This document shows positions 3,967 through 23,724 of a stretch of 32,000 nt of DNA, one piece after another (the stretch's first letter is position 1; each line of letters starts with the position of its first letter). Under the pieces are notes generated by a model. The model was not told the DNA's origin and did not search any database. It saw nothing but the letters and a program-made list of their open reading frames with translations. The position numbers were made by a program, and so were the translations under genes. Where the stretch lies: contig FO203512.1 of the NCBI GenBank assembly GCA_000967895.1, positions 537,582 through 569,581 on the forward strand. The letters run 5' to 3'. The DNA is from Oleispira antarctica RB-8. Lineage in GTDB: Bacteria; Pseudomonadota; Gammaproteobacteria; Pseudomonadales; Oceanobacteraceae.

Positions 3967-4044
3967 CCTCAATCAGAAAATAGACAAAGATTATACAAAG
4001 ACTATGGAAAGAAACATGAAACAGTTGGCAGTCAGGAGTGCAGA

Positions 4045-4914
4045 GTGACTGAACAAACAATCGTTATTTTGCCTTGGCAACGACTGGTTTTAATTTTAGG
4101 TAAGCTTACTTTTACCGTGTTAATCTCTAGCCAATTAGCCATTTTTACGTGGATGATATTAGCGCCTAGTTCCTTAGTATTGTCAGAACCAAGTCGCGCA
4201 CAAGGTGCCGCCGCAGTTATTCAAAATCAAAGTATTGCAGATATGCATATCTTTGGTGATGCGGTTGTGGAAGTGATGGAAGTTCCTAAAGAAGTAAATG
4301 CCCCTAAAACTCGTTTACGCCTAGAGTTGTTGGGAATTATGGCTGCAAGTATTGCAGAAAATTCTAGTGCGATCATTGCCCCGAAGGGCGGTGCAGGTGA
4401 AAATTACCGTATCGGAGATGTGGTTCAAGGCCGTACAAAGCTGGCAGCCGTGCAGCAAGATCAAGTGATCTTGGACAGTAATGGTAAGTTAGAAGCGCTG
4501 AAATTTGATCTAACCGACAAACAAGGCATTCAACAGTCCGCTAAGCCAACCCCCGCGCAAAGAAGAGCGCAAGCCGGTGGTACATTAAAAGAAAGATTCA
4601 GTCATATTCGCACTGCCTCAGATGCGGTAAGCCTATTAAGAGATGAGGTGGCTAATAATCCAGCGGGCGCCCTCAAGCAAATGGGGTTAGAAGTTGCGGG
4701 TAATGGCTCAGGCTATAAAGTTTCGAATTCGGGTTCAATGCTAACGCAGTTAGGCTTGCAACCGGGTGATGTGATTTTGTCTGTCAATGGACAGACATTG
4801 GGCAATTTAAATGATGATCAGATGTTATTAGAACAAGTGACTAATAGCGGTCAAGCGCGTTTGGAAATACAGCGTGGCAATCGTCGTTTTGTCGTTAACC
4901 ATACCATTAAATAA
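4045..4914 (+). CDS. gspC: Type II secretion system protein C with a C-terminal PDZ domain
   Basis: 289-aa ORF; N-terminal TM, LRLELLGIMAA homology region and PDZ motif LTQLGLQPGDVILSVNGQTL; adjacent to gspD. Confidence 0.93.
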   Translation: MTEQTIVILPWQRLVLILGKLTFTVLISSQLAIFTWMILAPSSLVLSEPSRAQGAAAVIQNQSIADMHIFGDAVVEVMEVPKEVNAPKTRLRLELLGIMAASIAENSSAIIAPKGGAGENYRIGDVVQGRTKLAAVQQDQVILDSNGKLEALKFDLTDKQGIQQSAKPTPAQRRAQAGGTLKERFSHIRTASDAVSLLRDEVANNPAGALKQMGLEVAGNGSGYKVSNSGSMLTQLGLQPGDVILSVNGQTLGNLNDDQMLLEQVTNSGQARLEIQRGNRRFVVNHTIK

Positions 4915-4925
4915 GGACTTAATCG

Positions 4926-6830
4926 GTGTTTAAGCGTTTTTGTAAAATTGCACTGTTGGCTATGACTATTGCCATCAGTATTCCTGCGTTGACTGTTCAT
5001 GCAGAAGATCAGAACTGGCAAGTAAATCTTAAAGATGCCGATATATCGGCGTTCATTGGACAGATTGCTGATATCACTGGTAAGAGCTTTGTTATTGACC
5101 CTAGGGTCAAAGGTAAGGTAACGGTGGTTTCAACTGAAACCATGAATACCGAAGCCGTTTATGAACTTTTCTTATCGGTGTTAAAAGTCCACGGCTATGC
5201 GGCGGTGCCAGCGGGTGATGTTGTCATGGTCGTGCAGCAAAACTCGGTTAAGCAGCAAGGTCGAGATTTAGAAGAGAAGTTCAAAAAACAAAGCCAAGAA
5301 ATGGTCACAAAAGTGATCATGATTAAAAATACACCGGCTTTGGATTTAGTGCCTATCTTGCGCCCGCTGGTGGCTAAATATGGCCACCTCGCGGGGGTGA
5401 AATCTGCCAATGCATTGATCATTTCCGATCATGCTTCAAACATCAATCGTATTGAACAGATTATCGATCGTCTTGATAAGTCTGGCTCTGAAGAGTTAGA
5501 AGTTATTCAATTGAAAGAAGCATGGGTTGGGAACGTTGTGACTATGTTGCAAAGTCTAGATCCCGATAAAGTGGCTCAAGGTAAAGGCTCTTCGAGTGGT
5601 GGTGCTGGTAGTATTCGAGTGGTTGCCGATGAGCGCAGCAATCGATTAATTATTAAGGGTGAGAAGACATCGCGAGAACGTATTCGTATATTGATTCAAC
5701 AGCTAGATAAGCCTTCTTATTTCTCAGGTAGCACCAAGGTTATTCGCTTGAAATACGCGGATGCCAAGAAGTTAGCAGAATTATTGAAAGGGGTTATGTC
5801 AGAATCGGACTCCGGTAGTAAAGATGCCAATAAAGCGAAAGGCAAAGCGAGTATTCATGCTGATGAAGAACTGAACGCTCTTGTGGTACGTGCTGAACCT
5901 TCTATTTTAAAAGAAATTGATGAAATTATTCATGAGCTGGATGTTCGTCGAGCTCAGGTACTAATTGAATCAGCTATTGTTGAAGTGACGGGTGAGGTGA
6001 GCGACTCTTTAGGTTTCCAATGGGCCTTGGGTGATACCGATAACCCTGTTGCGGGTACAAACTTTGGTAATGCTGGGCAGTCTTTATCAACGCTTGCCGC
6101 AGGTGTAGCGTCAGGCACTCCGACCTTGAGTAACGGTTTAACGTTAGGTGGCTTTAAAGAAACGAATGGTCAGGTAGATTTTGGTGTCATTCTACAAGCG
6201 TTAGAAAGTCAGAGTAATACTAACTTACTATCGACTCCTAGTATTATGACGCTTGATAACCAAGAAGCAGAAATTATTGTGGGCCAGAATGTTCCTTTCT
6301 TAACAGGTTCTACTTCGTCAAGTGCGAACAGCAATCCGTTTACCACCATTTCACGTGAAGATATTGGTGTAACGCTGAAAATTAAGCCGCATATCCATGA
6401 AGGTAATGAATTGCGTCTAGAGGTCGAGGTAAGCGCTGAGTCTGTGGCTAATACCACCGTTCAGGGACAGGCGGATTTGATTACCAATAAGCGTTCATTG
6501 AAAACAATGATTTTAGCCGCTGATGAAGAAACAATTGTATTAGGTGGTTTGATCAGTGACGACATTGTTGAAACAGAAAGTAAGGTTCCGCTGTTGGGTG
6601 ACATACCATTATTAGGTTGGTTATTTAAAAGTAAAAGTACACAACATGTGAAGCGTAATTTGATGGTTTTTTTACGCCCAACGATTGTATTGGATAAGCA
6701 AAAAGCGACGACTTTAACTCAAGACAAATACAATGGTGTTTGGGAGTTTGATTTGTCAGGTGATTTAGAAGTGGATGATGTGAATAGACGCATGAGTCGT
6801 TTATTTAAAGGTGTTCAACTGAGTAACTAA
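4926..6830 (+). CDS. gspD: Type II secretion system secretin
   Basis: 634-aa ORF; signal peptide, VNLKDADISAFIGQIADITGKSFVIDPRVKGKVTV, repeated N domains, and secretin core (VGQNVPFLTGS; IVLGGLISDD; KVPLLGDIPLLGWLF). Confidence 0.98.
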   Translation: MFKRFCKIALLAMTIAISIPALTVHAEDQNWQVNLKDADISAFIGQIADITGKSFVIDPRVKGKVTVVSTETMNTEAVYELFLSVLKVHGYAAVPAGDVVMVVQQNSVKQQGRDLEEKFKKQSQEMVTKVIMIKNTPALDLVPILRPLVAKYGHLAGVKSANALIISDHASNINRIEQIIDRLDKSGSEELEVIQLKEAWVGNVVTMLQSLDPDKVAQGKGSSSGGAGSIRVVADERSNRLIIKGEKTSRERIRILIQQLDKPSYFSGSTKVIRLKYADAKKLAELLKGVMSESDSGSKDANKAKGKASIHADEELNALVVRAEPSILKEIDEIIHELDVRRAQVLIESAIVEVTGEVSDSLGFQWALGDTDNPVAGTNFGNAGQSLSTLAAGVASGTPTLSNGLTLGGFKETNGQVDFGVILQALESQSNTNLLSTPSIMTLDNQEAEIIVGQNVPFLTGSTSSSANSNPFTTISREDIGVTLKIKPHIHEGNELRLEVEVSAESVANTTVQGQADLITNKRSLKTMILAADEETIVLGGLISDDIVETESKVPLLGDIPLLGWLFKSKSTQHVKRNLMVFLRPTIVLDKQKATTLTQDKYNGVWEFDLSGDLEVDDVNRRMSRLFKGVQLSN

Positions 6831-8211: not shown

Positions 8212-8488
8212 GATTTTCTCTCCAATATTAGCTTGAATGATACGGATAACTGGTAAGGTTCAAATGGGAGTCGAAGCCTTACTTCCGCAATCTGGGGTGA
8301 ATAATAGCACACCTTAAATTATCCGCTACGCATGTAAAATGTGTGGTTTTAGTTTGATCACCTTATCCGTTATACTAGCGCCACTTAAATACCTAAGAAA
8401 ATACCTTAAAAGGCCTGTTTATAAAGCGCTAGGGTGTGAGTACAAGGTACTAATAATCATAATAATGAGCCAGATACTCGGGGCAACT

Positions 8489-9316
8489 ATGTCAAACGAT
8501 CAAGAATCCATACCAAAGATGCAAGCATCACAAGAAGACATGGCGATGCGCCAAAAGCAGTTACAGCAACGTCGTTTAGCAGCGCAGCGTGCAGCAAAGG
8601 CAAATCCATCGGCCGCACAGATAGCGGCACCAGCGCCTAAGCAAACACTTGCTATTATTGCTTTAGTATTGAGTTTGGGGATGGGCGGCTTTGCAGCTTT
8701 TTTGTTTATACAACTACAGGAAGCTAATGCACAGTTGGGGAAAACAGAAGATATTTTAAATGGGCACGCAACCAATTTAGCAGTCTTAAATGATAAATTA
8801 TCGGCTTCCGATGAAAATTCAAATCTATCGGTTGGCGCATTGAAAGTATTATTAAAAGATAACGCCAAAGAAATTCGCAAGCTTTGGGATCTTACGAACA
8901 AAGCGAACAAACCTAACATTGAGAAAAATACTAAAGCGATTTCTAGTGTAAAAGCATCGGTGGTTAAGGTTGATAAAAAAGCGACAGGTATCGATAAAAA
9001 AGTTGTATCGGCCAATAGCAATATTACTGGCAACAAAAACAGCATCGCCGCGCTAAAAACCAGCTTAGCCAATAGCCAAAAATCGTTAGAAACAAAGCTC
9101 GCTGATCTTAAGTCATCCGTTACAGGTTTACCTGAAGCGACTGAAAAGCGTATTGGTAATAATGAGCAGTCAATTCGTTCTATCGATGCGACCCGTAAGA
9201 AGTTAAACAGCTCTATGGCGGAAGTTGAATCTCAGTTTAATGAAATGAAATTAGAAATTGAAGATATTCAAATTCGTTTAGACCGTATGCAAAATGCGAT
9301 GACGGGTACTCTTTAG
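8489..9316 (+). CDS. Hypothetical TM plus coiled-coil protein
   Basis: 275 aa from the internal ATG at 8489 (MSNDQESIPKMQ...); one TM (TLAIIALVLSLGMGGFAAFLFI) and a long periodic coiled-coil region. The track ORF start at 8339 adds an unlikely extension. Confidence 0.75.
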   Translation: MSNDQESIPKMQASQEDMAMRQKQLQQRRLAAQRAAKANPSAAQIAAPAPKQTLAIIALVLSLGMGGFAAFLFIQLQEANAQLGKTEDILNGHATNLAVLNDKLSASDENSNLSVGALKVLLKDNAKEIRKLWDLTNKANKPNIEKNTKAISSVKASVVKVDKKATGIDKKVVSANSNITGNKNSIAALKTSLANSQKSLETKLADLKSSVTGLPEATEKRIGNNEQSIRSIDATRKKLNSSMAEVESQFNEMKLEIEDIQIRLDRMQNAMTGTL

Positions 9317-9320
9317 TTCA

Positions 9321-10220
9321 TTGTCTTATTTAGCTAACTCACAAGGTGTGCTCGCTATATTGCGGCATGCCTTGGAACTTCCTCCGCTTCAATTCTCAGA
9401 TATAAAAATCTTTCGTCAGCATTTAGCCTCCGGTTTTCAACGTTATTCTACAGTACAGAATGCTTTTTATTTAGGCGCGCAAGCGGCAACTTCAGGCATG
9501 GCTTTCTTAGCGGGCTATCAGAATGCGATACGGTGTTTGGATGTGAATTGTCCCAGCGATGAATTGGCTGCATTTTGTGTATCTGAAAAAGGGGTTAAGA
9601 AACCCTGGGATATGGCGACCCGACTATCGGTATCTGATGACGGTTATCTACTCGATGGAAAAAAAGGCTATGTGATGCTTTTACCAGGCGAGTTAGATCG
9701 TATGTATGTGGTTGCAAAAAACGACAAAGATCAGCTTGGTTGTCTTTATGTGCTGGCTAATACAGCCGGTATTTCAACGACCGATGCTTTAGCGGCTCCT
9801 TTTGTAGAAGATATTCCTCATAGTGGAGTGTGTTTTGATAAGGTAAAAATCCCGGCTGATCAGGTATTCGATATAGATGGCCATCAACAAGCAAATAAGC
9901 CGTTTCGTTATTGGGAAGATGTGCACGTTGCGCTGTCTATGATGGGGTGGATGTCACGAGAACTGTTAGGGAGGCAGCAATCATTCGATGGATTGGATGA
10001 TATGGTACAACTCATCTGTCAGTTAATAGAACAGTATGAAGAGCACCCAGACTATTATTGTCTTGAGAGTCTTTTGTTATTAGATAAAAGCCATGAAATC
10101 ATGGATAACTACTCCCAAAACTTATCAGAAGAATCGAAAATTCTATGGCTGAAAGACAGGTTGTTATTACAGATGGGGCAGAAAATGCGCCACCTTGTGA
10201 GAGCTAAAATGGTTAATTAA
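9321..10220 (+). CDS. Acyl-CoA-dehydrogenase-like protein, apparently shortened
   Basis: 299-aa ORF (TTG start). The middle segment resembles the ACAD beta domain (AAFCVSEKGVKKPWDMATRLSVSDDGYLLDGKKGYV...GVCFDKVKIPADQVFD); the C-terminal part does not look like a full catalytic helical domain. Confidence 0.5.
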   Translation: MSYLANSQGVLAILRHALELPPLQFSDIKIFRQHLASGFQRYSTVQNAFYLGAQAATSGMAFLAGYQNAIRCLDVNCPSDELAAFCVSEKGVKKPWDMATRLSVSDDGYLLDGKKGYVMLLPGELDRMYVVAKNDKDQLGCLYVLANTAGISTTDALAAPFVEDIPHSGVCFDKVKIPADQVFDIDGHQQANKPFRYWEDVHVALSMMGWMSRELLGRQQSFDGLDDMVQLICQLIEQYEEHPDYYCLESLLLLDKSHEIMDNYSQNLSEESKILWLKDRLLLQMGQKMRHLVRAKMVN

Positions 10221-13727: not shown

Positions 13728-13830
13728 ATGCCTGTTGATAAATGCATGTGAATAAATACTAAGTAGCCGCAAAGTGAAGAGTCGCTATACTGATCCTATG
13801 CGAACCATCAATCTCTATAAGGAATTAATC

Positions 13831-14130
13831 ATGAGTTGTGACGCGAAGAAATTGGATAACCTGACTAGCGAAGATATTCCTGAAGGCTGGAAAATTAAAG
13901 AGGTTACGGGTATTGGGCAACTGGTGAAGGAATTTAAATTTAAAAACTTTGTCACTGCCATGCACTTTAGTAATGAAATCGCTGAATTAGCAGAATTACA
14001 CAATCATCATCCTATGATTATTAGTGAGTGGGGCAAGGTTACACTCTATTGGTGGACTCATACTGCGAAAGGAGTCAGTGCTCTCGATATTAAACTCGCC
14101 CAACTTTCTGATGAATTAAGCACCTCCTAA
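13831..14130 (+). CDS. phhB: Pterin-4a-carbinolamine dehydratase
   Basis: 99 aa from the ATG at 13831 with AAGGA upstream; FKFKNFVTAMHFSNEIAELAELHNHHPMIISEWGKVTLYWWTHTAKGVSALD. Confidence 0.95.
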   Translation: MSCDAKKLDNLTSEDIPEGWKIKEVTGIGQLVKEFKFKNFVTAMHFSNEIAELAELHNHHPMIISEWGKVTLYWWTHTAKGVSALDIKLAQLSDELSTS

Positions 14131-14175: not shown

Positions 14176-14523
14176 TCAATGGCTAATCCCAATGTAGTCG
14201 ACCAGCATTGAGCGTCCTTCACAGCCTAATGATTTAATACTCACTTTATGCTTAAAATTAAGCGCCGCGAGTACTAACTGAAACTTTCTCTTTGCTACTT
14301 CTTGATTGTCACTATAAGACCGATACCTGTTTGACAATTTCCCGCCGCACTTATGTGATTTTAGTGACGTAAAGAAATCAAAGCCAGCCTGAGTATCGTC
14401 CTCTATTTGGTATAAAGAAATAATCAATAAGTTATTTTTTACATTATTCTCTTCGGCAAAAGAGGTTTGAATACCCCCTAGAACGAATGAAAATAAAAAA
14501 GCTACCTGAATCAATGACTTCAT
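14176..14523 (-). CDS. Small exported hypothetical protein with two Cys in the mature part
   Basis: 115 aa from the internal start at 14523 with GGAGG upstream on the minus strand; signal peptide MKSLIQVAFLFSFVLGGIQTSFA. Confidence 0.65.
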   Translation of the reverse strand: MKSLIQVAFLFSFVLGGIQTSFAEENNVKNNLLIISLYQIEDDTQAGFDFFTSLKSHKCGGKLSNRYRSYSDNQEVAKRKFQLVLAALNFKHKVSIKSLGCEGRSMLVDYIGISH

Positions 14524-14632
14524 AAACCCTCCTTTAGATAAAAGTATAGCCAATTTTTTAAAACCATCATCAAACCTGAATATATGAACTATGCTGACAT
14601 TAGAAATCTGATAAAAACATCAGGGTTAAGGA

Positions 14633-15700
14633 ATGTTGATGGTCGTTAAAAATTTAAGAATATTATGCATCGGTTTATTAATGTCACTGAATTATGTTCA
14701 GGCGGCAGAACCTGATTTACCGCACATGGCTGAGCCAGCACCGACTCTCTATACAGGCTTTGGCCAATTATTAGATGACGATAAAACGCTGGTCTTAGAA
14801 GAATTAATGGACTTAGATCAAAATATTCAGCGTATCGCACTTTATCATAATGGCGATCGCTTGCACCGCTTAATCCCCAAGCAAGTGCACCAAATGATCG
14901 AGAATAAACTCATGCGTCGTTTAATTGCGAATGGCCGTTTTGATGTCATTCAGTGTCTCGAATGTCGAACGACTAAAGTAGTGATGGCTGTTGATGAGTT
15001 GAAAATATCACAAGCTGCTGAAAATAATCAGCAATTAAGAGCGCTATCAAAAAAAGTGCGTGCAGATGCCTTTATGTTCTGGAGTGCATCTGTACATGAA
15101 AATAAATTTACTATTAATTTGCGCTTAGTCGATGGTAAAAATAATGAGCTGCTATGGCTGAAAGAATATTCTAAAAAGACCACTCAAGAAGCGGAAGAAA
15201 ATGATTTTGATAGAGTTCAATATGAATTCATTGTCGGCGCTTGGGGGGTGAAAGGAAAACGTGAAAGTACCGTTGCCGCCGGGAGTACTGAACTAAAGGG
15301 AGCAACAGTTTTTGGTATACGTCGTAGAGAAAGCACAGAGTTAAATGAAGATATTGAATATACCTTAGGTTTTGAATACTTCACAAACTATTCGTCTGAA
15401 GAACTATTTGATCTCAGTGGTTATAATCTTGAAGGTCGAGTTATTGCAGATATTCCTGCCTTAGATGATGTGCTGGATACGAAAGTTTATCTTGGCATAG
15501 GGCAGTCATTTTTTAATGATGCAAACAGTCTGATCTTTCGTTTTGGCTTTGAATTTCCCTTCTTTAAAGACGGATTTATGGATTTTGGTGTGATGTATAT
15601 GCGAGAAGCCAATGTTAAGTGGAAGACCGATGCTGCGTTTGAAGAAATAGGCACTTTCGGTGGTGCAAGTTATGACTTAACACTCGGTGTGCGCTTCTAA
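14633..15700 (+). CDS. Exported protein with a probable C-terminal outer-membrane beta-barrel-like domain; first gene of the motor-like block
   Basis: 355-aa ORF; signal peptide, N-terminal region with ECRTTKVV..., then alternating beta segments ending in YDLTLGVRF with terminal Phe. The start at 14639 has better SD spacing than 14633. Confidence 0.75.
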   Translation: MLMVVKNLRILCIGLLMSLNYVQAAEPDLPHMAEPAPTLYTGFGQLLDDDKTLVLEELMDLDQNIQRIALYHNGDRLHRLIPKQVHQMIENKLMRRLIANGRFDVIQCLECRTTKVVMAVDELKISQAAENNQQLRALSKKVRADAFMFWSASVHENKFTINLRLVDGKNNELLWLKEYSKKTTQEAEENDFDRVQYEFIVGAWGVKGKRESTVAAGSTELKGATVFGIRRRESTELNEDIEYTLGFEYFTNYSSEELFDLSGYNLEGRVIADIPALDDVLDTKVYLGIGQSFFNDANSLIFRFGFEFPFFKDGFMDFGVMYMREANVKWKTDAAFEEIGTFGGASYDLTLGVRF

Positions 15701-15709
15701 GGACGAATT

Positions 15710-16432
15710 ATGAAACAGTTAATAATTGCTTTATTGATAGTATTAATCAGTGCATGTACGCATGAAAGAACAAATAGAATGCTTACCCAGTATGGTGATA
15801 GTCAGCCTGATTTATTGGGAATTGGCGAACAGAGTACTGAAGCAACTGCTGAAATCTCGCTTGAGACCATAGAGAAGCGTAAGCAAGTTGCTGATTTAGC
15901 AAAAAAGAATCATGGTTTAATGCACATCCATCGCTACGGCCCTGGGTTTGATGTCTTAATGACATTAGATACGGGGGATAGCGATGTTAGTTTTAGTATG
16001 GCGCTGCCTTCAACACCGGGAAGTCTGCAAGACTCACTTCGAAGTGATTTACAAAAAAGTGCAGAAGAAATTGCTGAACAAAACAAACAAGTTCTTGAAA
16101 GCTTGGATGACGATAAAGCTGAACTTCATCATGAAGAATTAGATGAGCGCAGTGAATTAATTGAGCAAAAGAAAATTCAAGACTTTCAAGCTTCAACAAA
16201 ACACATCTTTAGTGCGCAGTCTTTATTTTATAAAAAGCAATATTGGCAATCATTGGATGAAACTAATAAAGCGCTAGAGCTAGTTCCAGACTCTGCTCAA
16301 GCGCATGCTTTGAAAGGCAGCATTTATTACAAAATGGGATTAAGTGCTGAAGCCAAAGCTAGTTGGCAGCAAGCGTTAGAAATAGATCCAACGATGGAAC
16401 AAGTCAAAACCAGTTTGACGCGCTTGAAGTAG
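15710..16432 (+). CDS. Lipoprotein with C-terminal TPR repeats
   Basis: 240-aa ORF; MKQLIIALLIVLISAC lipobox; TPR-like QSLFYKKQYWQSLDETNKALELVPDSAQAHALKGSIYYKMGLSAEAKASWQQALEIDPT. Confidence 0.85.
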   Translation: MKQLIIALLIVLISACTHERTNRMLTQYGDSQPDLLGIGEQSTEATAEISLETIEKRKQVADLAKKNHGLMHIHRYGPGFDVLMTLDTGDSDVSFSMALPSTPGSLQDSLRSDLQKSAEEIAEQNKQVLESLDDDKAELHHEELDERSELIEQKKIQDFQASTKHIFSAQSLFYKKQYWQSLDETNKALELVPDSAQAHALKGSIYYKMGLSAEAKASWQQALEIDPTMEQVKTSLTRLK

Positions 16433-16443
16433 GGGAACGGAAT

Positions 16444-18369
16444 ATGAAATTATTGATACAAGGTATCCTCAATCTGTGTCTGATCTGTGCAGTAGCTTAT
16501 CCTATTGTGAATGCTACGGCTGAGACTGGGAAAACCTTTGAAGTACCGGCTAAAAAAGATGAAATCGAAGAGGTGCGTTTTAAAGATGAAATGGAAGCGC
16601 GATTGAATCGAGACTTACAGGCATATCTTGGGAATAATCGCTTTATCATTCATGTTGAAGCCGAATTGAAAAAAACACGTACTGTTGTAAAAGAACGATC
16701 TAATACCGCGGCTAAGAATATTCCAGAACGCCCAGTATTTACTTCACAACCTTTGCCAGTATCAATCGATAATCGAACAAGAGAAATCGAAGAAACACTC
16801 CCTGGGCTTCCGACCAGTGATTTACCCATTTTCGAAGATAACAGTGTGGAAGTCGATGCGTTGAAAGGCCGTGTTCAGCAATTAGAGAATGAGCGGCAGC
16901 AAGCTCTGGGATATGCTGAAAAATTACGCCAAGAAGCTGAAAAGCAGATAGAAAAAATTAAAGAAAAAACGCTAGGTTATAGAAATTCTATTAATAAACT
17001 CACTATAACCGTGGTATTAGATAAAAGTTTAAAAGATGAGCAAATAGAATTCATTCGTAATTTGATTACTCGTAAAGCGCGCTTAGATGAATTACGAGGA
17101 GACTCTTTAAGCATTGTTCGTACAGAGTTTAAAGACGTTAAGCAAGATGTTGTACTGGATGGTTGGCAACAATACCAAGGCTGGATCATGTTAGCTTGTT
17201 TTGGCTTTATGATGTTGTTATTACTGCTGGTGCTCTATTTATTTAATAAGCGCTTGAGTGAGAGTCTAAAAGAGAATCAGCGAAGAAGTGATAACTTTGA
17301 TAGCCTGACTGTTCCGGCTGCCGTTGAAATGGCTCCTATTGATCATTCGGAAAATGAGGGTAATGATAAGCGTCGTCAGCTTAATGAAATGCGCCAAGAG
17401 CTCGTGACGATTGGCTTAGGCCAGCCACAGCTATTTCAACAGCGTATTAACGAACAGTTAAATAGCGGAAATAGTCAAAATGTAGCGGCCTTATATGAAG
17501 TATTAGGAAAGGGGTTGTTTCGCAGTCTTTGCCCAAAAATATTAAATTCTGATGCTGAAACTTTAGCAGACCAAGTCGCACAACAGCCTTTAGATAATGA
17601 ACAAAAACTTACTTATTTAAATAATCTGCGTCACGAGATGTTAAAAGCGTTAAGTGATGATGAAACGGGTAATGCTCCCTTTGCTTTTTTGGAAAAATTA
17701 AATGATTCACAAGTTTTATATTTAATAAAAGAAGAAGAAACGCGGATCAAAGCGTTGGTTTTATCGCAAGTTCCTGCAAAAAGAGCGGCCAGTTTAGTGC
17801 AGCGACTAGAGGGGCGTGAGCAATCTGCGGTAGCGTATGAATTGGGTGAGTTTGAAACCTTACCCGTATCAACCTTCAAAGACGTTGCGGATCGTTTAGC
17901 ACAAAAATCTTTGAATGTTCCAAGCTTTGAGAATGTATCTGCGAATGGTCTGTCAGTATTAATTAATATGCTAGACACCATGAGCAGTGGTGAAGAAACT
18001 CGTTTACTTAAAACATTAAAAGCGGATAAACCTGAAACCTATTATCGTTTGCGCCAAGTATATTATACCTATGCTGATTTGATGCGAACCCCTGAGCGAG
18101 TGATTGCGAATGAGCTTAGAGATGTTGATCGTACGGTGATGGCGTTATCGCTATGCCATACTACAACCGAATTCAAACGACATGTGTTAACGGGGTTGCC
18201 AGCCAAGCTACGATCTTCTGTCATTGCAGAATTGAAAATACAAGAAGGCCAAGCAGCACAAGAGCAAACTGAGCAGGCTAGAAATCAAGTTGTGGCTAAG
18301 ATGCGTGAAGTATTAAAAGCAGGCCGCTTTTCTATGGAAGAATTGATCGCTGTTGCGAATCCAAGTTAA
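16444..18369 (+). CDS. FliF(C-terminal)-FliG-like fusion membrane protein
   Basis: 641 aa from the ATG at 16444. N-terminal signal/TM, FliF-like periplasmic part (LNRDLQAYLGNNRFIIHVEAELKKTRTVV...INKLTITVVLDKSLKDEQIEFIRNLITRKARLDELRGDSLSIVRTEF), TM (WIMLACFGFMMLLLLLVLYLF), then a FliG-like cytoplasmic part (EEETRIKALVLSQVPAKRAASLVQRL...VIANELRDVDRTVMALSLCHTTTEFKRHVLTGLPAKLRSSVIAEL...QARNQVVAKMREVLKAGRFSMEEL). Confidence 0.8.
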   Translation: MKLLIQGILNLCLICAVAYPIVNATAETGKTFEVPAKKDEIEEVRFKDEMEARLNRDLQAYLGNNRFIIHVEAELKKTRTVVKERSNTAAKNIPERPVFTSQPLPVSIDNRTREIEETLPGLPTSDLPIFEDNSVEVDALKGRVQQLENERQQALGYAEKLRQEAEKQIEKIKEKTLGYRNSINKLTITVVLDKSLKDEQIEFIRNLITRKARLDELRGDSLSIVRTEFKDVKQDVVLDGWQQYQGWIMLACFGFMMLLLLLVLYLFNKRLSESLKENQRRSDNFDSLTVPAAVEMAPIDHSENEGNDKRRQLNEMRQELVTIGLGQPQLFQQRINEQLNSGNSQNVAALYEVLGKGLFRSLCPKILNSDAETLADQVAQQPLDNEQKLTYLNNLRHEMLKALSDDETGNAPFAFLEKLNDSQVLYLIKEEETRIKALVLSQVPAKRAASLVQRLEGREQSAVAYELGEFETLPVSTFKDVADRLAQKSLNVPSFENVSANGLSVLINMLDTMSSGEETRLLKTLKADKPETYYRLRQVYYTYADLMRTPERVIANELRDVDRTVMALSLCHTTTEFKRHVLTGLPAKLRSSVIAELKIQEGQAAQEQTEQARNQVVAKMREVLKAGRFSMEELIAVANPS

Positions 18370-18378
18370 GGATCAAGT

Positions 18379-19182
18379 ATGAATCGATTTTCGTTTAGTA
18401 CACTGGTTGGGATAACGGTCGCTATTAGCCTTTTCATGTACGCCATTGTTTCGAGCACCAATAACTATTTAATGTTTATTAGTGTCTCAAGCTTTGCTTT
18501 GGTGGCGGGAAGCACGTTTGCAGCCTCTTTGATTAGCTATACCACAGCAGACGTCCTTACCGCGATTAAAGCATTATTTGAGACCTTGTTTCATGCGCCG
18601 ACCAGTTCGAAACATTTACGCGGCCATGTAGAGCGCTTTATTGAATGGGGAAGTATTTATCGTCAACAAGGTATTGCGGGATTAGAGTCTTCGCTAACGG
18701 ACAAAGAGCGCAGAGATCCATTTTTAGCACACGGTATGGAGCTATTAAGCAGTGGTTATAAAAACCATGACATTCGTACTATTTTAACCGATGACATGGA
18801 CGCTTTCTGGCAACGAATGACTGTCGAGTCAAAAGTATTAAATACGATGGCTGTTTATGCTCCCGGCTTTGGTATGGTTGGTACCATCATCGGTTTGATT
18901 ATTATGCTCGATAATATGAATGGCGATATGGCCGCCTTAGGTAAAGGTTTGGCATTGGCATTAATTACAACGCTATATGGCGTTGTATTGGCCAACATTT
19001 TCTTTAGACCTGCTGCCAACCAAGTGACCGAAAAACAAGAATCATTATACTTTCGTGATCAAATGATTGTTGAAGGGTTTGTATTGTTAGCCGAGAAGCG
19101 TGACGCATTATTTATGCAAGATCGGTTGAATGCTTACCTCAAACCAAGTGCACGTTATCAGCCAATAGAAGAAGAGCTGTAA
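18379..19182 (+). CDS. MotA/PomA-family stator protein
   Basis: 267-aa ORF; TM pairs and ERRDPFLAHGMELLSSG...VYAPGFGMVGTIIGLIIMLDNM...GKGLALALITTLYGVVLANIFFRP, typical of PomA/MotA. Confidence 0.95.
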   Translation: MNRFSFSTLVGITVAISLFMYAIVSSTNNYLMFISVSSFALVAGSTFAASLISYTTADVLTAIKALFETLFHAPTSSKHLRGHVERFIEWGSIYRQQGIAGLESSLTDKERRDPFLAHGMELLSSGYKNHDIRTILTDDMDAFWQRMTVESKVLNTMAVYAPGFGMVGTIIGLIIMLDNMNGDMAALGKGLALALITTLYGVVLANIFFRPAANQVTEKQESLYFRDQMIVEGFVLLAEKRDALFMQDRLNAYLKPSARYQPIEEEL

Positions 19183-19862
19183 TGACAGAGTCGGTTTCTA
19201 ATAAACACAGGGGGCTAAGACGTCGTCGCCCCAATTTTGAGGATTCATCCAGCTCTTGGTTAATTACCTACTCTGATGCAGTTACTTTGCTGCTCGCTTT
19301 TTTTGTAATGATATTATCTGTCTCAGATTTGAATCAGGGAAAAGTGGAAGCGCTAAAAGAAGGTCTAACAGAAGCGATGACAGGAGAGGCGCCTCCTACA
19401 CCATTTACCGATATTAAAAATGGCTTAGAGCAATTAATTGAGCAGGATGGCTTGCAAGATCAAGTCTCTGTTACTCTAGATAAAGAAGGTGTGAAAATAG
19501 AGTTTTCAAATGTTTCATTATATCAATCAGGTTCGGCCGATATTAAAATTGATGCGATTAAAACACTGAATAAAGTAACTCAAGTTATACTAAAAACCAG
19601 CCATAAGACTCACATGGTCGAAGTGGGTGGGCATACTGATAATGTTCCAATTCATACCGAAAAATTCCCATCAAATTGGGAGTTGTCGTCTGCGCGAGCA
19701 ACCAATGTTGTTAAGTACTTATTAGCAGAAGGAATCGAAAAAGAACGACTAAAAGCGGCAGGTTACGCCGATAGCCGACCTAAAGAAAACAGCCTTAATT
19801 TACCCCTCAATCAGCAGCGTGAAGATAATCGACGCGTGGTTATTTTTGTAAAGCGTTACTAG
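19182..19862 (+). CDS. MotB/PomB-family stator protein with OmpA-like peptidoglycan-binding domain
   Basis: 226-aa ORF; single TM with conserved Asp (SWLITYSDAVTLLLAFFVMILSVSD); OmpA/MotB motif VEVGGHTDNVPI...NWELSSARATNVVKYLL...RLKAAGYADSRP...NRRVVIFV. Shares one base with the upstream stop (TAATG). Confidence 0.96.
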   Translation: MTESVSNKHRGLRRRRPNFEDSSSSWLITYSDAVTLLLAFFVMILSVSDLNQGKVEALKEGLTEAMTGEAPPTPFTDIKNGLEQLIEQDGLQDQVSVTLDKEGVKIEFSNVSLYQSGSADIKIDAIKTLNKVTQVILKTSHKTHMVEVGGHTDNVPIHTEKFPSNWELSSARATNVVKYLLAEGIEKERLKAAGYADSRPKENSLNLPLNQQREDNRRVVIFVKRY

Positions 19863-19902
19863 CGTTACATCATCAAACCCATCACTCAAGATCTTAATTC
19901 AT

Positions 19903-19950
19903 AGATGACATGAAAGTGTCATCTAATGTTATTAAATCTGTCACTTTCAT
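19903..19950. promoter_or_regulatory. Cluster of direct and inverted repeats upstream of the PhoX-like gene; possible Pho-box-like array
   Basis: Heptamers in 11-bp register resembling CTGTCAT: ATGACAT(19905), GTGTCAT(19916), CTGTCAC(19938). Also AGATGACA...TGTCATCT (8-bp stem) and ATGAAAGTG(19910-19918)...CACTTTCAT(19942-19950). Confidence 0.4.
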
Positions 19951-20005: not shown

Positions 20006-21913
20006 ATGGAACTCCTTCAGAAAAACGCTTTATACAAGGCGGTATTACTCGCGATGACAACGAGTATGTTAGTTGCTTGCGGCGGAGATTCGGATGGCGA
20101 CGATGGTATAAATGGTGCTAGCGGTGCTAACGGTACTAATGGTGCTAACGGTACTAATGGTGCAGACGGTCAAAATGCGGGAGGACCTGTTTCAGTAATT
20201 GACCCAACAAGCCTTGTTTTTACCGGTGTAAAAGCCCCAATGACTGATGCTGAAAAACGTACGGTTTTAGCCTCTGATGCCATGATTGACGGTAAGGTTT
20301 ATGGCGGTGCTTATAAAACATTAGTACGTTCTGGTGAGGATGTTAATGGTATCTACTTTGGTCAATTAGTTGATGAGTCGGGTAGCGTATTAAAAGCGGG
20401 TGATGGATCTATTAAAATCTCTGATTCAAATGAATTTACCTCATTATTACCGATCGGCAATAAATTATTCTCAGTTTCTCAGTTTGAAAGTAAGCCAGGT
20501 GCAATGTTCTTGATGGAATTAAATCAAGATGCTGTCGATGGTGAATTAACTGTAAAAAACATGAGCCAAATAGACCAGTCTGGCATTGATGGAGGCTGGG
20601 TTCATTGCGCGGCATCCGTAACCCCTTGGACAACGCATTTAGCGTCAGAAGAATATGAGCCGAATGCTCGTTCTCTGGTTACAGGGTCTGATGCTCAATC
20701 CGATGGCTATACAAGTGGCATGTTGGATTATTACGCCGATATTAACCAATGGAATCCGTATTTCTATGGTTGGAATATTGAAGTTGTTGTCTCAGAAGAT
20801 GCTCAAGTAACAAGTACAAAGCATTATGCAATGGGGCGTTTAGCATTTGAACTTTCTTATGTGATGCCTGATAAAAAAACAACCTATATGACGGATGATG
20901 GAACGAACGTTGGCTTATATATGTTCGTTGCTGATACAGCTGAAGATCTGAGCGCAGGCACGGCTTATGCCGCTAAATGGAATCAAACGTCTGCCGATGG
21001 CATGGGCGCGGCTGACTTAGAATGGATTTCTTTAGGTCATGCGACAGATGCTGAGATTAAAGATTATGTGAAAGGCACCAACGGTAAAACTGTTGCAACT
21101 TTCGCAGATATCTTCACGACGGCAGATGCGACAGGATCGACATGTCCTGATACTTTTACTGCGGTTAATGCCGGTGGTAAAGGACTTGAGTGTTTGAAAG
21201 TGAATGCAGGTATGGAAAAAGCGGCTTCTCGTTTAGAGACACGTCGTTATGCTGCATTAATGGGTGCAACGACAGAATTCAGAAAAGAAGAAGGCGTTAC
21301 TTTCGATAGTAAGCGTAACAAGCTGTATGTTGCTATGTCATCTATTGAAAAAGGCATGATGGATAATGACTCAAATGATTTTGGTGGGCCAAATCACATT
21401 GCACTTAATACCTTAAACAAATGCGGTGGCGTATACGAATTAGACCTTGGAGCAAATGCTGGAATGGGGTCCGACTTTGTTGCACAAAACATGAAGGGCC
21501 TGATTGCTGGTCGCCCAGTCGATGGCAGTGGTTATGGTACAACAACCGAGCCACAAGCTGTTGGTTATGAGAATGGTAATAAGTGTCACATTGATGGAAT
21601 ATCAAACCCAGATAACGTTACGTATATGACGGGCTACGATAAGTTAATTGTCGGTGAAGATACGGGTTCTGGTCACCAGAATGATGTTATTTGGGCTTAT
21701 GACTTTACCTCAGAAGATCTTGTTCGAATTCAAACCACACCTTATGGTTCTGAAACAACGTCTCCTTACTGGTATCCAAATATCAATGGCTGGGCGTACA
21801 TGACTTCCGTTATTCAGCATCCTTATGGTGAGTCTGATGGTGGTGAGAATACTGGGGCAGGAGAAGCGCGTGCTTACACGGGTTATGTCGGTCCTTTCCC
21901 CGCTGTAAACTAA
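20006..21913 (+). CDS. PhoX/DUF839-like lipoprotein with a collagen-like Gly-X-X linker
   Basis: 635-aa ORF; lipobox TTSMLVAC, Gly-X-X repeat, then a long beta-rich domain with VTPWTTHLASEEYEPNAR...FRKEEGVTFDSKRNKLYVAMSS...NKCHIDGISNPDNVTYMTGYDKLIVGEDTGSGHQNDVIWAYDF, resembling PhoX-type DUF839 proteins. Confidence 0.8.
   Translation: MELLQKNALYKAVLLAMTTSMLVACGGDSDGDDGINGASGANGTNGANGTNGADGQNAGGPVSVIDPTSLVFTGVKAPMTDAEKRTVLASDAMIDGKVYGGAYKTLVRSGEDVNGIYFGQLVDESGSVLKAGDGSIKISDSNEFTSLLPIGNKLFSVSQFESKPGAMFLMELNQDAVDGELTVKNMSQIDQSGIDGGWVHCAASVTPWTTHLASEEYEPNARSLVTGSDAQSDGYTSGMLDYYADINQWNPYFYGWNIEVVVSEDAQVTSTKHYAMGRLAFELSYVMPDKKTTYMTDDGTNVGLYMFVADTAEDLSAGTAYAAKWNQTSADGMGAADLEWISLGHATDAEIKDYVKGTNGKTVATFADIFTTADATGSTCPDTFTAVNAGGKGLECLKVNAGMEKAASRLETRRYAALMGATTEFRKEEGVTFDSKRNKLYVAMSSIEKGMMDNDSNDFGGPNHIALNTLNKCGGVYELDLGANAGMGSDFVAQNMKGLIAGRPVDGSGYGTTTEPQAVGYENGNKCHIDGISNPDNVTYMTGYDKLIVGEDTGSGHQNDVIWAYDFTSEDLVRIQTTPYGSETTSPYWYPNINGWAYMTSVIQHPYGESDGGENTGAGEARAYTGYVGPFPAVN
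20105..20176 (+). repeat. Eight Gly-X-X triplets (GIN GAS GAN GTN GAN GTN GAD GQN), including a perfect 18-bp tandem repeat
   Basis: GGTGCTAACGGTACTAAT occurs twice in tandem at 20123-20158. Confidence 0.95.
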
Positions 21914-21938
21914 TCGTAATAATTGCAGGTTAGTATTG

Positions 21939-21966
21939 AAAGGGTGGCATTAGCCACCCTTTTTTT
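21939..21966 (+). terminator. Rho-independent terminator after the PhoX-like gene
   Basis: AGGGTGGC(21941-21948)-ATTA-GCCACCCT(21953-21960)-TTTTTT. Confidence 0.9.
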
Positions 21967-21984
21967 ATTGAGAATATGTAAATT

Positions 21985-23724
21985 ATGTTTCGTTCTATTA
22001 ATTGTACTATTAATCGTACTATGCCTTGTCTGATAGTTTCTTGCTGTGTAGTTTTATGCCTTACGGCTTGTGATTTTTCTCAAGCTGATGAGCCTTCTCA
22101 ATCGAATGAGCTTTTCCAATCTAATAGTTCAGCAATAGATAAAAGTGCATTAACCAGTGATGTACTCAACAACCCCACTGCTTATATTCCCCCGCAGTGT
22201 TATACAAAAACTACCGCCACAGATGGCGCGATCCATAATCCTTGTTATGTTTGTCACACGGCCAGTAAAGCGCCCAATTTTTTAAATGATACCGATGTTC
22301 AGCAAGAACTTGTATTTCCTGAACCGGGCGTGATTAATCGTTGGGACAATATGTTTAAAGATTACAGTAAGCAAGTAGCCAAGATTAGCGATGAAACAAT
22401 ACTAAAGTATGTCCGCCAAGATAATTATAAAAACAGTCAAAATGAATTAATTTTAGCGGATAAATTACAAGCTTTACCTGCAGAGTGGGATAGAAATAAA
22501 AACGGCCAATGGGATGGGTTCATTCCCGACAGTTATTACAATTTTAATGACAAAGGATTTGATGTCGCCCCTAGTGGTGAATTAACAGGTTGGCGTGTCT
22601 TTGCTTATTATCCTTTTTTAGGCACCTTTATGCCTGTTAATGGTTCCACTGACGATGTCATGATTCGTTTACCAGAGATATTTAGGCAAGATGATAAGGG
22701 CATATTTGATGAGCGCGTTTATGAACTCAATCTATCTATTATCGAATCACTGCTAAAACAAAAAGATATTAATATTGCTGAAGTGGATGAAAATTTATAT
22801 CAAGTAGATTTGAACAAAGATGGCAAGTTGTCACACACAAGTACTATTCGTTTTTCATGGTCTCCAAACGATAATATTTTTATGAGCTACGTTGGCTTGG
22901 CTAAAGCTAAGCTGGCGGCTAAAGAAATAAATCTAGCAGCAGGACTTTACCCCGTTGGCACAGAGTTTCTTCACAGTGTTCGTTACATCGATGAAAAAGA
23001 CGGCAATACAGCAATGGCTGCTAGGATGAAAGAGTTGCGTTATGCCCGAAAAGAAAACTGGCGTAATTATTACCAGCTAGAACGCATTGCGATGAAAGAA
23101 GTAAAAGAACGCCATGATTTTCCCGATAGAACCAAGCAAGTTATCGGCAATATGGAAGTTGGATTAACCGTAGCGCAAGGTTGGACGTATCAAGGTTTTA
23201 TTGAAGATAAACAGGGCGACCTTAGACCCCAATCTTATGAAGAAAGTTATTTTTGTGTCGGTTGTCATAGTGGTACCGGAGCCACCGCAGATACCACTTT
23301 CTCGTTTTCGCGAAAATTTGATAGTGACAGTTTTAAGCAAGGTTGGTACAGCTGGCTTGAAAAAGACTTAGCTGGAATTAGCGATCCATTACGAAATGAT
23401 GGCTTAGGTGAGTATGGATATTATTTAACTCATAACCCGAGTGGTAATGAATACCGCAATAACGATGCGGTCAAAAATAAGTTTTATGATAAGCAGGGTA
23501 ATAAAAAAATAGGTGCTTTTAATGATCTGAAAACAGATATCAGTACCTTGTTAATGCCTGACGTTAAGCACGCGCTGATAATGAATAAAGCCTACAAGGT
23601 TATTGTTGATGAACAAAGTTATAGCCAAGGTCGAGATGGCCATGTTTCTGAGATTGTTAATATTCACAAAGAAGTCGAGTTAGGGCAGGATACCGGCATT
23701 GTTGATGTGCTTAATTTCCACTAG
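21985..23724 (+). CDS. Putative multi-haem (two CXXCH) lipoprotein with Ca-binding-like loops
   Basis: 579-aa ORF; lipobox VVLCLTAC; CYVCH (22243-22257) and CVGCH (23254-23268); EF-hand-like loops DRNKNGQWDGF and DLNKDGKLSH. Confidence 0.8.
   Translation: MFRSINCTINRTMPCLIVSCCVVLCLTACDFSQADEPSQSNELFQSNSSAIDKSALTSDVLNNPTAYIPPQCYTKTTATDGAIHNPCYVCHTASKAPNFLNDTDVQQELVFPEPGVINRWDNMFKDYSKQVAKISDETILKYVRQDNYKNSQNELILADKLQALPAEWDRNKNGQWDGFIPDSYYNFNDKGFDVAPSGELTGWRVFAYYPFLGTFMPVNGSTDDVMIRLPEIFRQDDKGIFDERVYELNLSIIESLLKQKDINIAEVDENLYQVDLNKDGKLSHTSTIRFSWSPNDNIFMSYVGLAKAKLAAKEINLAAGLYPVGTEFLHSVRYIDEKDGNTAMAARMKELRYARKENWRNYYQLERIAMKEVKERHDFPDRTKQVIGNMEVGLTVAQGWTYQGFIEDKQGDLRPQSYEESYFCVGCHSGTGATADTTFSFSRKFDSDSFKQGWYSWLEKDLAGISDPLRNDGLGEYGYYLTHNPSGNEYRNNDAVKNKFYDKQGNKKIGAFNDLKTDISTLLMPDVKHALIMNKAYKVIVDEQSYSQGRDGHVSEIVNIHKEVELGQDTGIVDVLNFH

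Follow-up and report, generated by a model that had tools for sequence, protein, structure and literature searches.

Can the rotor and the stator of a flagellar motor exist without a flagellum? The question is raised by a stretch of 32,000 nucleotides (nt) from the genome of Oleispira antarctica RB-8 (contig FO203512.1, positions 537,582 to 569,581; hereafter, the window), in which an earlier note, made from the sequence alone, had recognised a natural fusion of the flagellar proteins FliF and FliG, encoded outside any flagellar gene cluster. Here, we find this fusion to be the third gene of a five-gene operon (14639-19862, plus strand), which further encodes an outer-membrane (OM) β-barrel protein (gene 1), a tetratricopeptide repeat (TPR) lipoprotein (gene 2) and, directly downstream of the fusion, a MotA/MotB stator pair (genes 4 and 5) that the note had left unmentioned. 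In our view, the operon encodes a self-contained rotor–stator machine that is derived from the flagellar motor, operates independently of the flagellum and presumably rotates; we assign this reading a probability of roughly 0.6.

The product of the fusion gene begins with MKLLIQG, its start codon being preceded by a GGAGAG ribosome-binding site; an alternative, longer frame opening with a TTG codon at 16363 would overlap with the upstream gene. From the N- to the C-terminus, the protein comprises a signal peptide, a periplasmic domain resembling the third ring-building motif (RBM3) and collar of FliF, one transmembrane (TM) helix, and the N, M and C domains of FliG:

16444..18369, plus strand: gene 3, FliF(RBM3-TM-tail)–FliG(N-M-C) fusion, 641 residues (OLEAN_C05060, UniProt R4YK22)
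16444..16524, plus strand: residues 1-27, signal peptide or first TM helix (hydropathy; helix at residues 2-23 of the AlphaFold2 model)
16525..17130, plus strand: residues 28-229, periplasmic FliF RBM3/collar-like domain (PF08345, profile, Foldseek)
17173..17256, plus strand: residues 244-271, TM helix (Kyte-Doolittle peak 2.79)
17377..17658, plus strand: residues 312-405, FliG_N-like helical domain (aligns to the N-terminal domain of 3HJL)
17707..17919, plus strand: residues 422-492, FliG middle domain (PF14841)
18013..18333, plus strand: residues 524-630, FliG C-terminal domain (PF01706, Foldseek)
18196..18237, plus strand: residues 585-598, torque-helix equivalent LPAKLRSSVIAELK (HMMER alignment to Thermotoga maritima and Aquifex FliG)

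Three Pfam families matched this protein above their gathering cut-offs, namely YscJ_FliF_C (PF08345) at residues 58-229 (E=2.7e-9), FliG_M (PF14841) at residues 422-492 (E=9.7e-14) and FliG_C (PF01706) at residues 524-630 (E=6.4e-14), and PF14842 is precomputed on several members of its family. A profile made from 16 family members aligned residues 312-632 with full-length Aquifex FliG (3HJL, residues 6-326; E=1.3e-20) and residues 42-325 with residues 235-534 of Salmonella FliF (6SCN; E=1.2e-8), which span RBM3, the collar, TM2 and the cytoplasmic tail; the search proposed in the earlier note thus places FliF in the N-terminal and FliG in the C-terminal half. Foldseek searches with the AlphaFold2 model of the fusion (predicted local distance difference test score, pLDDT, 72.6) returned full-length FliG structures first, with E-values down to 1e-9, together with the FliF RBM3 S-rings of Salmonella and Vibrio at E-values of about 1e-3 (8FTF, 6SD1, 7CG7 and 8Z4D). 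The C-terminal domain superposed on 1QC7 and 8UCS_H with root-mean-square deviations of 1.5-1.8 Å, the value for 8UCS_H, a MotAB-bound FliG fragment, being 1.5 Å. Judged by profiles and model, the gene 3 product is FliF from RBM3 onward, joined head-to-tail to a complete FliG, and the natural fusion proposed in the earlier note is borne out by all of these comparisons.

The protein is distant from its flagellar counterparts. Its identity to FliF and FliG is about 15-20%, and its scores against the NCBIfam equivalog models reach 58.6 bits for fliG (TIGR00207; cut-off 226.7) and 17.5 bits for fliF (TIGR00206; cut-off 129.75). RBM1 and RBM2, which form the SctJ-homology region of FliF, are absent, with only about 30 residues preceding the RBM3-like region, in agreement with the note's remark that the N-terminal ring-building motifs were missing; the TM helix that it had placed at residues 247-269 likewise coincides with the one seen in the hydropathy profile. 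The signal peptide is likely cut after NATA, as predicted by eye. Two elements make up a family-specific insertion of the periplasmic domain, located at the position of the FliF collar loop: a disordered loop, in which the motif LPGLP (nt 16798-16812) is invariant, and, in the AlphaFold2 model, a helix of 38 residues (134-171). One may speculate that this insertion is a contact site for the TPR lipoprotein or the gene 1 product.

The remaining elements of the operon, all on the plus strand, are the following:

14586..14599, plus strand: conserved upstream motif GAACTATGCTGACA, possible promoter element, about 40 nt before gene 1
14639..15700, plus strand: gene 1, OLEAN_C05040, 353 residues; signal peptide, periplasmic domain, OM barrel
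15710..16432, plus strand: gene 2, TPR lipoprotein, 240 residues; lipobox LISAC, TPR repeats at residues 170-237
18379..19182, plus strand: gene 4, MotA/PomA-type stator A subunit, 267 residues, four TM helices (Pfam MotA_ExbB, 7.5e-26)
19182..19862, plus strand: gene 5, MotB-type stator B subunit, 226 residues; TM helix, plug, OmpA-like peptidoglycan-binding domain
19902..19925, plus strand: likely operon terminator, hairpin with a 10-bp stem, 40 nt past motB

As the intergenic gaps measure 9, 11, 9 and -1 nt, the motA stop codon overlaps with the motB start and a hairpin closes the array, the five genes form one operon. Its locus tags are OLEAN_C05040 to C05080, as follows from the entries for C05040, C05060 and C05090 in a published proteome (Gregson et al. 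2020, PMC7318663). An alignment of the upstream regions of nine Oleispira-type loci revealed the conserved motif GAACTATGCTGACA, which has no recognisable sigma-70, sigma-54 or sigma-28 consensus. Neither the window nor 34 related loci carry a sigma-54 or sigma-28 consensus upstream of the operon, and a scan for sigma-70 sites found them to be no more numerous than in shuffled sequence.

The stator genes are of the flagellar type. The gene 4 product, with four hydrophobic segments in its hydropathy profile, matched stators of known structure (8GQY, 8UCS, 6YSF and 8BRI) with E-values of 1e-25 to 4e-29, and the gene 5 product, which matched 6YSF_A at 4e-29, has both the MotB plug (PF13677, 1.3e-14) and the OmpA domain (PF00691, 1.3e-15). 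The best NCBIfam matches of gene 4 lie below their equivalog cut-offs (MotP, 164.6 against 394; PomA, 127 against 341; also MotA), as does the best match of gene 5 (MotD, 180 bits against 283); by these scores, genes 4 and 5 represent a distinct stator subfamily that falls into no named equivalog family.

Whether the parts of such a motor could still work together can be judged from the residues on which a flagellar motor depends, and we counted their conservation over 43 loci. The channel Asp32 in the TM helix of MotB (nt 19275-19277) is kept in all 43, as are Pro162, Thr169, Thr198 and Pro211 of MotA; the threonine pattern is common to PomA, but also to other stators of the same class. In the cytoplasmic loop of MotA, Arg95 (nt 18661-18663; the position of E. 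coli R90 and PomA R88) and Glu103 (nt 18685-18687; the E98/E96 position) are each retained in 39/43 loci. On the rotor side, the helix that the earlier note had singled out as torque-helix-like (ELRDVDRTVMALSL, residues 557-570) is the one preceding the torque helix. In the actual torque-helix equivalent, LPAKLRSSVIAELK, K588 (E. coli R281) is K or R in 41 of the 43 loci and E596 (E. coli D289) is E or D in 37, and the MFxF hinge of FliG is kept as Y-[FY]-T-[FY]-x-D. This conservation of motor residues suggests a functional ion channel and, at its core, a functional contact between stator and rotor. By contrast, the FliM-binding motifs of FliG are replaced, EHPQR by EEETR (over the 43 loci, [HDE]E[DE]x..R) and GGXG by GEFE (G-[QE]-F-[ED]), so that the link to the FliM/FliN switch appears to be lost; with no fliM or fliN nearby, the 'switch ring' that the earlier note had offered as one reading of the protein is not upheld. 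Co-variation of charges between MotA and FliG was seen only as lineage-level differences (Bermanella versus Oleispira type), with no clear compensatory pairs.

Gene 1 starts at 14639, given that its relatives carry ATT instead of ATG at 14633. Its product matches P0325 ('Conserved hypothetical protein [Oleispira antarctica RB-8]') with 100% identity and combines a periplasmic α/β domain (about residues 60-182) with a C-terminal, eight-stranded OM β-barrel that ends in GVRF. In the AlphaFold2 model (pLDDT 70.9), the barrel resembles NspA, OmpA, OmpX and Ail, and the periplasmic domain resembles the C-domain of LpoB (TM-score 0.58), GNA1162, TolB-N and FlgT; Pfam gave weak matches to FlgT_M (E=0.006), FlgO (0.037) and LpoB (0.14), and a sequence search of the PDB returned no match. 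The gene 2 product, with Pfam TPR_1 (3.5e-9) and TPR_2 repeats, is weakly similar to the TPR lipoproteins PilW, Tgl and NlpI in NCBIfam; against the PDB it found generic TPR proteins only, with no specific link to MotX or PflA/B.

A genome scan yielded 37 loci, from Oleispira, Thalassolituus, Bermanella, Oceaniserpentilla, Oceanobacter, Bacterioplanoides, Gynuella and Saccharospirillaceae, which have all five genes in the same order wherever the contig reaches far enough. Open reading frames (ORFs) were intact, and gene 2 was present, in every locus examined; pairwise ratios of nonsynonymous to synonymous substitution rates (dN/dS) are 0.02-0.065 for each of the five genes, at saturated dS, and the fusion family retains dozens of invariant columns down to 37% identity. 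The earlier note had suggested looking for the same architecture in other genomes, and a hidden Markov model search of 1.84 billion cluster representatives (50% identity) indeed recovered 162 clusters at E<1e-30; of the listed representatives with at least 500 residues, 127/131 have an internal TM helix that starts, in the median, at residue 211 and leaves about 370 residues on the cytoplasmic side. In the more distant loci the gene order varies. Two loci whose relatives are named Fibrobacterota or Fibrobacteria (L039 and L042) read FliFG, gene-1-like, TPR, MotA, MotB; a gammaproteobacterial metagenome-assembled genome (L044, 2191-16130) reads Sel1/SPOR, MotA, MotB, gene 1, TPR, FliFG; L038 reads TPR, FliFG, MotA, MotB; and L040, L041, L048 and L049 follow the gene order of the window, with extra genes downstream. 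Homology to gene 1 was detected by hhalign for L044 (E=1e-41) and L039 (4e-8), and was not detectable by this method for L048. That the gene order is shuffled while the content stays constant argues strongly for joint action of the five proteins.

Some individual loci deserve mention. Three (L035-L037) had seemed to carry split fusion genes, as tblastn matched residues 312-634 only; their ORFs of about 650 residues are intact, however, so that their N-terminal domain is merely more diverged. A search for a plasmid-borne or mobile origin, by tblastn against 72,556 plasmids, gave nothing, and two distant loci adjoin TraG-like genes. In L041 (10463-14778) and L049 (11270-15588), the module is followed by genes for a 1044-residue protein with immunoglobulin-like and Glucodextran_B similarity and for a 395-residue lipoprotein, and this clade has TraG/VirD4-like genes upstream on the opposite strand; the extra genes could encode a load or an adhesin, or they could be signs of a mobile context. 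The accessory proteins of 1044, 471 and 237 residues in the distant loci had no informative family match. The module of L044 directly adjoins Wza/Wzc/Wzy-type exopolysaccharide export genes. In an outlier, L043 (7001-10709), a FliFG-like protein of 771 residues is encoded beside a KAP-family NTPase, with no MotA/MotB nearby.

How, then, does the module relate to the flagellum of its host? According to the genome paper (PMC3759055), O. antarctica has a monopolar flagellum and a complete flagellar and chemotaxis array, OLEAN_C12070-C12510, about 700 genes away from the module at OLEAN_C05040-C05080; Thalassolituus oleivorans, similarly, has a single flagellar region (TOL_2479-2522). No export, rod, hook or switch genes accompany the module and no fli, flg or flh gene lies within the 32-kb window, which agrees with the note's placement of the fusion outside the flagellar cluster. 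Since a complete cluster is present elsewhere, the fusion is not the genome's only FliF/FliG within a normal flagellar regulon, a finding that the note had named as one that would refute its proposal. From the location of the genes, the loss of the FliM motifs and the absence of flagellar promoter motifs, we infer that the module is independent of the flagellum. It is also expressed. The proteome of Gregson et al. 2020 (PMC7318663) lists a 'FliG-like protein' OLEAN_C05060 (R4YK22) of 641 residues, an 'Uncharacterized protein OLEAN_C05040' and an 'Alkaline phosphatase OLEAN_C05090' (635 residues), showing that at least two of the five products, the fusion and gene 1, are made in cells. The genome paper further reports 'two stator systems MotAB and PomAB' as an adaptation for swimming and swarming (PMC3759055); one of these pairs may be the MotAB of the module, misattributed to the flagellum.

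Compared with the flagellar motor core, the module retains the RBM3/collar fold of FliF, followed by the TM helix and cytoplasmic tail; the armadillo-type N, M and C domains of FliG, with the aromatic hinge and, at two of five positions, the charges of the torque helix; the four TM helices of MotA, with Arg/Glu in the cytoplasmic loop and two conserved prolines; and Asp32, plug and OmpA-like domain of MotB. It differs from this core in that FliF and FliG are one polypeptide that has no RBM1/RBM2 and no FliM/FliN-binding motifs, in its location outside the flagellar cluster without genes for export gate, ATPase, rod, hook, filament or L/P-ring, and in carrying an OM β-barrel protein and a TPR lipoprotein of its own. 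Instead of standing in an operon of the fliE-F-G-H type, the fusion has motA, motB and the genes for the TPR lipoprotein and the OM protein as neighbours.

Covalent 1:1 linkage of FliF and FliG has precedents in engineered or spontaneous fusions of Salmonella and Vibrio, of which an engineered fusion from Vibrio alginolyticus forms MS/S-rings, as seen by electron cryo-microscopy (8Z4D/8Z4G; PMC11481574). These engineered proteins, however, join full-length FliF to FliG within a normal flagellum, whereas the Oleispira fusion is natural, lacks RBM1/RBM2 and is encoded in a separate operon. A natural fusion of about 330 residues is found in Chlamydiaceae (Bergeron 2016, PMC4768692). Of FliF, it comprises RBM2 and a further RBM that is unassigned, and of FliG no more than a region resembling FliG_M; it lacks a MotAB partner, and an interaction with the injectisome has been proposed for it. 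Like the protein described here, it is a shortened FliF with a FliG-like cytoplasmic domain outside a functional flagellum; unlike it, the Oleispira protein has 641 residues, which include RBM3 and a complete FliG, and shares its operon with MotAB.

In other ion-driven motors of the 5:2 type, such as ExbBD, TolQR, GldLM, AglRQS and ZorAB, dedicated partners pass the energy through the envelope, where it serves tasks other than flagellar ones. The module resembles these systems (ExbBD–TonB, TolQR–TolA–Pal, GldLM of the type IX secretion system, AglRQS–Glt and ZorAB) in that an ion unit of the MotA/MotB family is encoded with partners of its own, but it differs from the Ton, Tol and Gld systems in having a plug-bearing stator of the flagellar ion transporter (FIT) class and a FliG partner that would form a ring, rather than a periplasmic arm of the TonB, TolA or GldM type. 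A survey of MotAB diversity (PMC12505986) treated plug-bearing, flagellar-type stators as flagellum-specific and mentioned no such module. A Zorya or other defence system was considered and rejected: PADLOC found none, matches to ZorA (E>=0.0017) were confined to the shared channel core, MotA has just 267 residues where ZorA has a long C-terminal tail, and there is no ZorC, ZorD or ZorE. As for genes 1 and 2, the closest parallel is offered by the Vibrio and Campylobacter scaffolds (FlgT, FlgO, FlgP, MotX, MotY, PflA/B), OM or periplasmic proteins with LpoB/FlgT_M/FlgO-type folds and TPR/Sel1 repeats, which surround the rotor and position the stators. Gene 1 weakly resembles FlgT_M, FlgO and FlgT, and gene 2 has TPR repeats; the similarity of gene 1 to H/T-ring proteins is weak, though (E 0.006-0.04), its eight-stranded β-barrel has no equivalent in those proteins, and no MotY or FlgP homologue was seen. 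A scaffold role for genes 1 and 2 would be suggested only by analogy.

On this basis, the machine may be pictured as follows. As in the engineered Salmonella and Vibrio fusions, the RBM3 domains would oligomerise into an S-ring-like ring in the periplasm, the ring of FliF itself counting about 33-34 subunits, and the TM helices and FliG domains would make a second ring to match it, within and beneath the inner membrane, with an enforced stoichiometry of 1:1. MotA5B2 units, anchored to peptidoglycan by the OmpA domain, would conduct H+ or Na+ via Asp32, and the cytoplasmic loops of MotA (R95/E103) would push against the torque helix of FliG (K588/E596), thereby turning the ring, and turning it one way only, because there is no switch complex. 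The TPR lipoprotein and the OM protein could position the stators, as a scaffold or bushing comparable to the H/T rings of Vibrio; alternatively, the torque could be delivered to them, as the load. As output, we favour the delivery of ion-motive energy to a periplasmic or OM process. The reduced rotor without export apparatus that the earlier note had considered mechanically plausible fits all of these findings and gains from the adjoining MotA/MotB; that it rotates is what we infer.

Several observations weigh against such a machine, and some of them lend themselves to other explanations. A rotor without an axle has no obvious load. Of the five classical torque-helix charges, three are not kept: Cys571, almost invariant, stands in place of K264, the D288 position holds Ala or varies, and R297 lacks an equivalent. 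The acidic position of E596 drifts as well in the most distant members. All hosts of the close clade have a monopolar flagellum. In the published proteome, MotA, MotB and the TPR protein are not listed, and the columns of its table are mis-registered, so that we used it for presence only, its abundances being uncertain. The missing axle or evident load, and the retention of only 2/5 torque-helix charges, drifting in distant members, would suit a non-rotary transducer, in which MotAB acts in the manner of TolQR or ExbBD and spends the ion flow on conformational work upon periplasmic or OM partners (the proteins of genes 1 and 2, or a coiled coil in the periplasmic part of the fusion), while the fusion is a static membrane platform or regulator for docking and gating the stators. 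An OM β-barrel with an LpoB/TolB-N-like domain, next to a TPR lipoprotein, indeed recalls the envelope-spanning layout of Tol-Pal and Ton, and the invariant LPGLP loop could be a fixed link between the fusion and the TPR protein. We nevertheless consider this explanation unlikely, as the stator is of the flagellar rather than the Exb/Tol type, with plug and long cytoplasmic loop, and as all three FliG domains, the aromatic hinge, the equivalents of R281 and D289 and, along with them, R95 and E103 of MotA have been kept, together with the ring-building RBM3 fold.

Alternatively, the module could be an accessory of the polar flagellum, providing an alternative rotor subunit and a second stator set, along with additional H/T-ring-like scaffold proteins, which would co-assemble with FliF/FliG under certain conditions, for example in the cold, at high load or at low sodium. 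The flagella of all close-clade hosts would be in line with this, as would the view taken in the genome paper, that an extra MotAB pair is a second stator system (PMC3759055), the weak resemblance of gene 1 to the H-ring proteins FlgT_M and FlgO, and the general role of TPR/Sel1 proteins as stator scaffolds in Vibrio and Campylobacter. Yet a fusion that lacks RBM1/RBM2 and shares no more than about 15-20% identity with FliF and FliG is unlikely to enter mixed rings with the flagellar proteins; its FliM-binding motifs are lost, some 700 genes separate the operon from the flagellar cluster, neither a sigma-54 nor a sigma-28 motif precedes it, and in other phyla and other gene orders the set of five recurs as a whole, with no flagellar genes beside it. 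Taken together, an accessory role strikes us as quite improbable. Lastly, the loss of the N-terminal half of FliF and scores far under the FliF and FliG equivalog cut-offs might be expected of a relic, that is, a duplicated and truncated fliFG-motAB fragment, drifting and functionless. This is effectively refuted by the conservation of the genes: the ORFs are intact everywhere examined, dN/dS is at most 0.065 at saturated dS, dozens of columns stay unchanged among sequences with as little as 37% identity, the family extends across phyla and the fusion protein was detected by proteomics. We hold to the self-contained, flagellum-independent rotor–stator machine as the preferred reading.

Beyond the operon, the window holds housekeeping genes (those for C, D and N components of the type II secretion system, SodB, Maf, fumarase, pterin dehydratase, a PhoX-like protein, FBPase and Mpl). 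Divergent from the operon, a gene on the minus strand (14176-14553) encodes a small secreted protein of 115-125 residues that matches no family and is kept beside the module, at 33-73% identity, in loci of Oleispira, Thalassolituus and Bermanella, and is a possible further member of the system. A pterin-4a-carbinolamine dehydratase is encoded just upstream of the module both in the window (13774-14130) and in the Fibrobacterota-type locus L039 (6083-6430), which may be coincidence. In some near-identical Oleispira contigs (L046, 3115-5001; L047, 838-2724), a three-gene insertion that is absent from the window separates fumarase from pterin dehydratase and encodes proteins of 99 and 124 residues and a Sel1-repeat protein of 339 residues. 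Downstream of the operon, 20006-23724 encodes a PhoX-like lipoprotein (OLEAN_C05090; lipobox LVAC, collagen-like GxNGxxG run) and a 579-residue protein without assigned family; positional homologues are located behind motB in Oleispira and Thalassolituus, whereas Bermanella has none there. Upstream, 3199-6830 and 8339-10220 hold the N-, C- and D-like genes of type II secretion, about 8 kb away, and an uncharacterised pair, encoding an SMC-like coiled-coil protein of 325 residues and a 299-residue protein with weak acyl-CoA-dehydrogenase-like matches.

While UniProt's name for the protein, 'FliG-like', implies that its resemblance to FliG had already been noticed by annotators, a full-text literature search of incomplete coverage returned no description of the module, but only engineered fusions and the chlamydial one. 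Within the literature searched, a natural FliF–FliG fusion has earlier been described only for Chlamydiaceae. To our knowledge, flagella are so far the only setting in which FliG is known to act as a torque-receiving rotor, and all other motors of the MotA/MotB family that we know of (Ton, Tol, Gld, Agl and Zorya) use quite different partners. What we find instead, a conserved, expressed, cross-phylum module of five genes, looks like a flagellar motor cut down to its wheel, its engine and an OM anchor. We put forward, more tentatively than the reading of the Oleispira operon itself and as a possibility that may well fail, that there is an unrecognised envelope-spanning rotary nanomachine, a FliG/FliF wheel driven by MotAB without type III secretion core or filament, that acts independently of the flagellum across phyla, including Oceanospirillales and Fibrobacterota.

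The genes of the module are at present labelled 'flagellar motor switch protein FliG', MotA and MotB, and may be counted wrongly as additional stators of the flagellum, a mistake possibly made for O. antarctica. If our interpretation is true, they would represent a new type of ion-driven machine and, at the same time, a natural, minimal and genetically tractable system for stator–rotor coupling, free of export, switching and axial parts. For the cell, this would mean a new use of torque, for example in moving or remodelling OM or surface components on insoluble substrates. It would also open to testing the old question of whether the rotor–stator module of flagella can exist and evolve apart from the type III secretion core, and would bear directly on the evolutionary assembly of the flagellar motor: such a nanomachine would either descend from a rotor–stator unit that is separable from the export apparatus or give a view of one.

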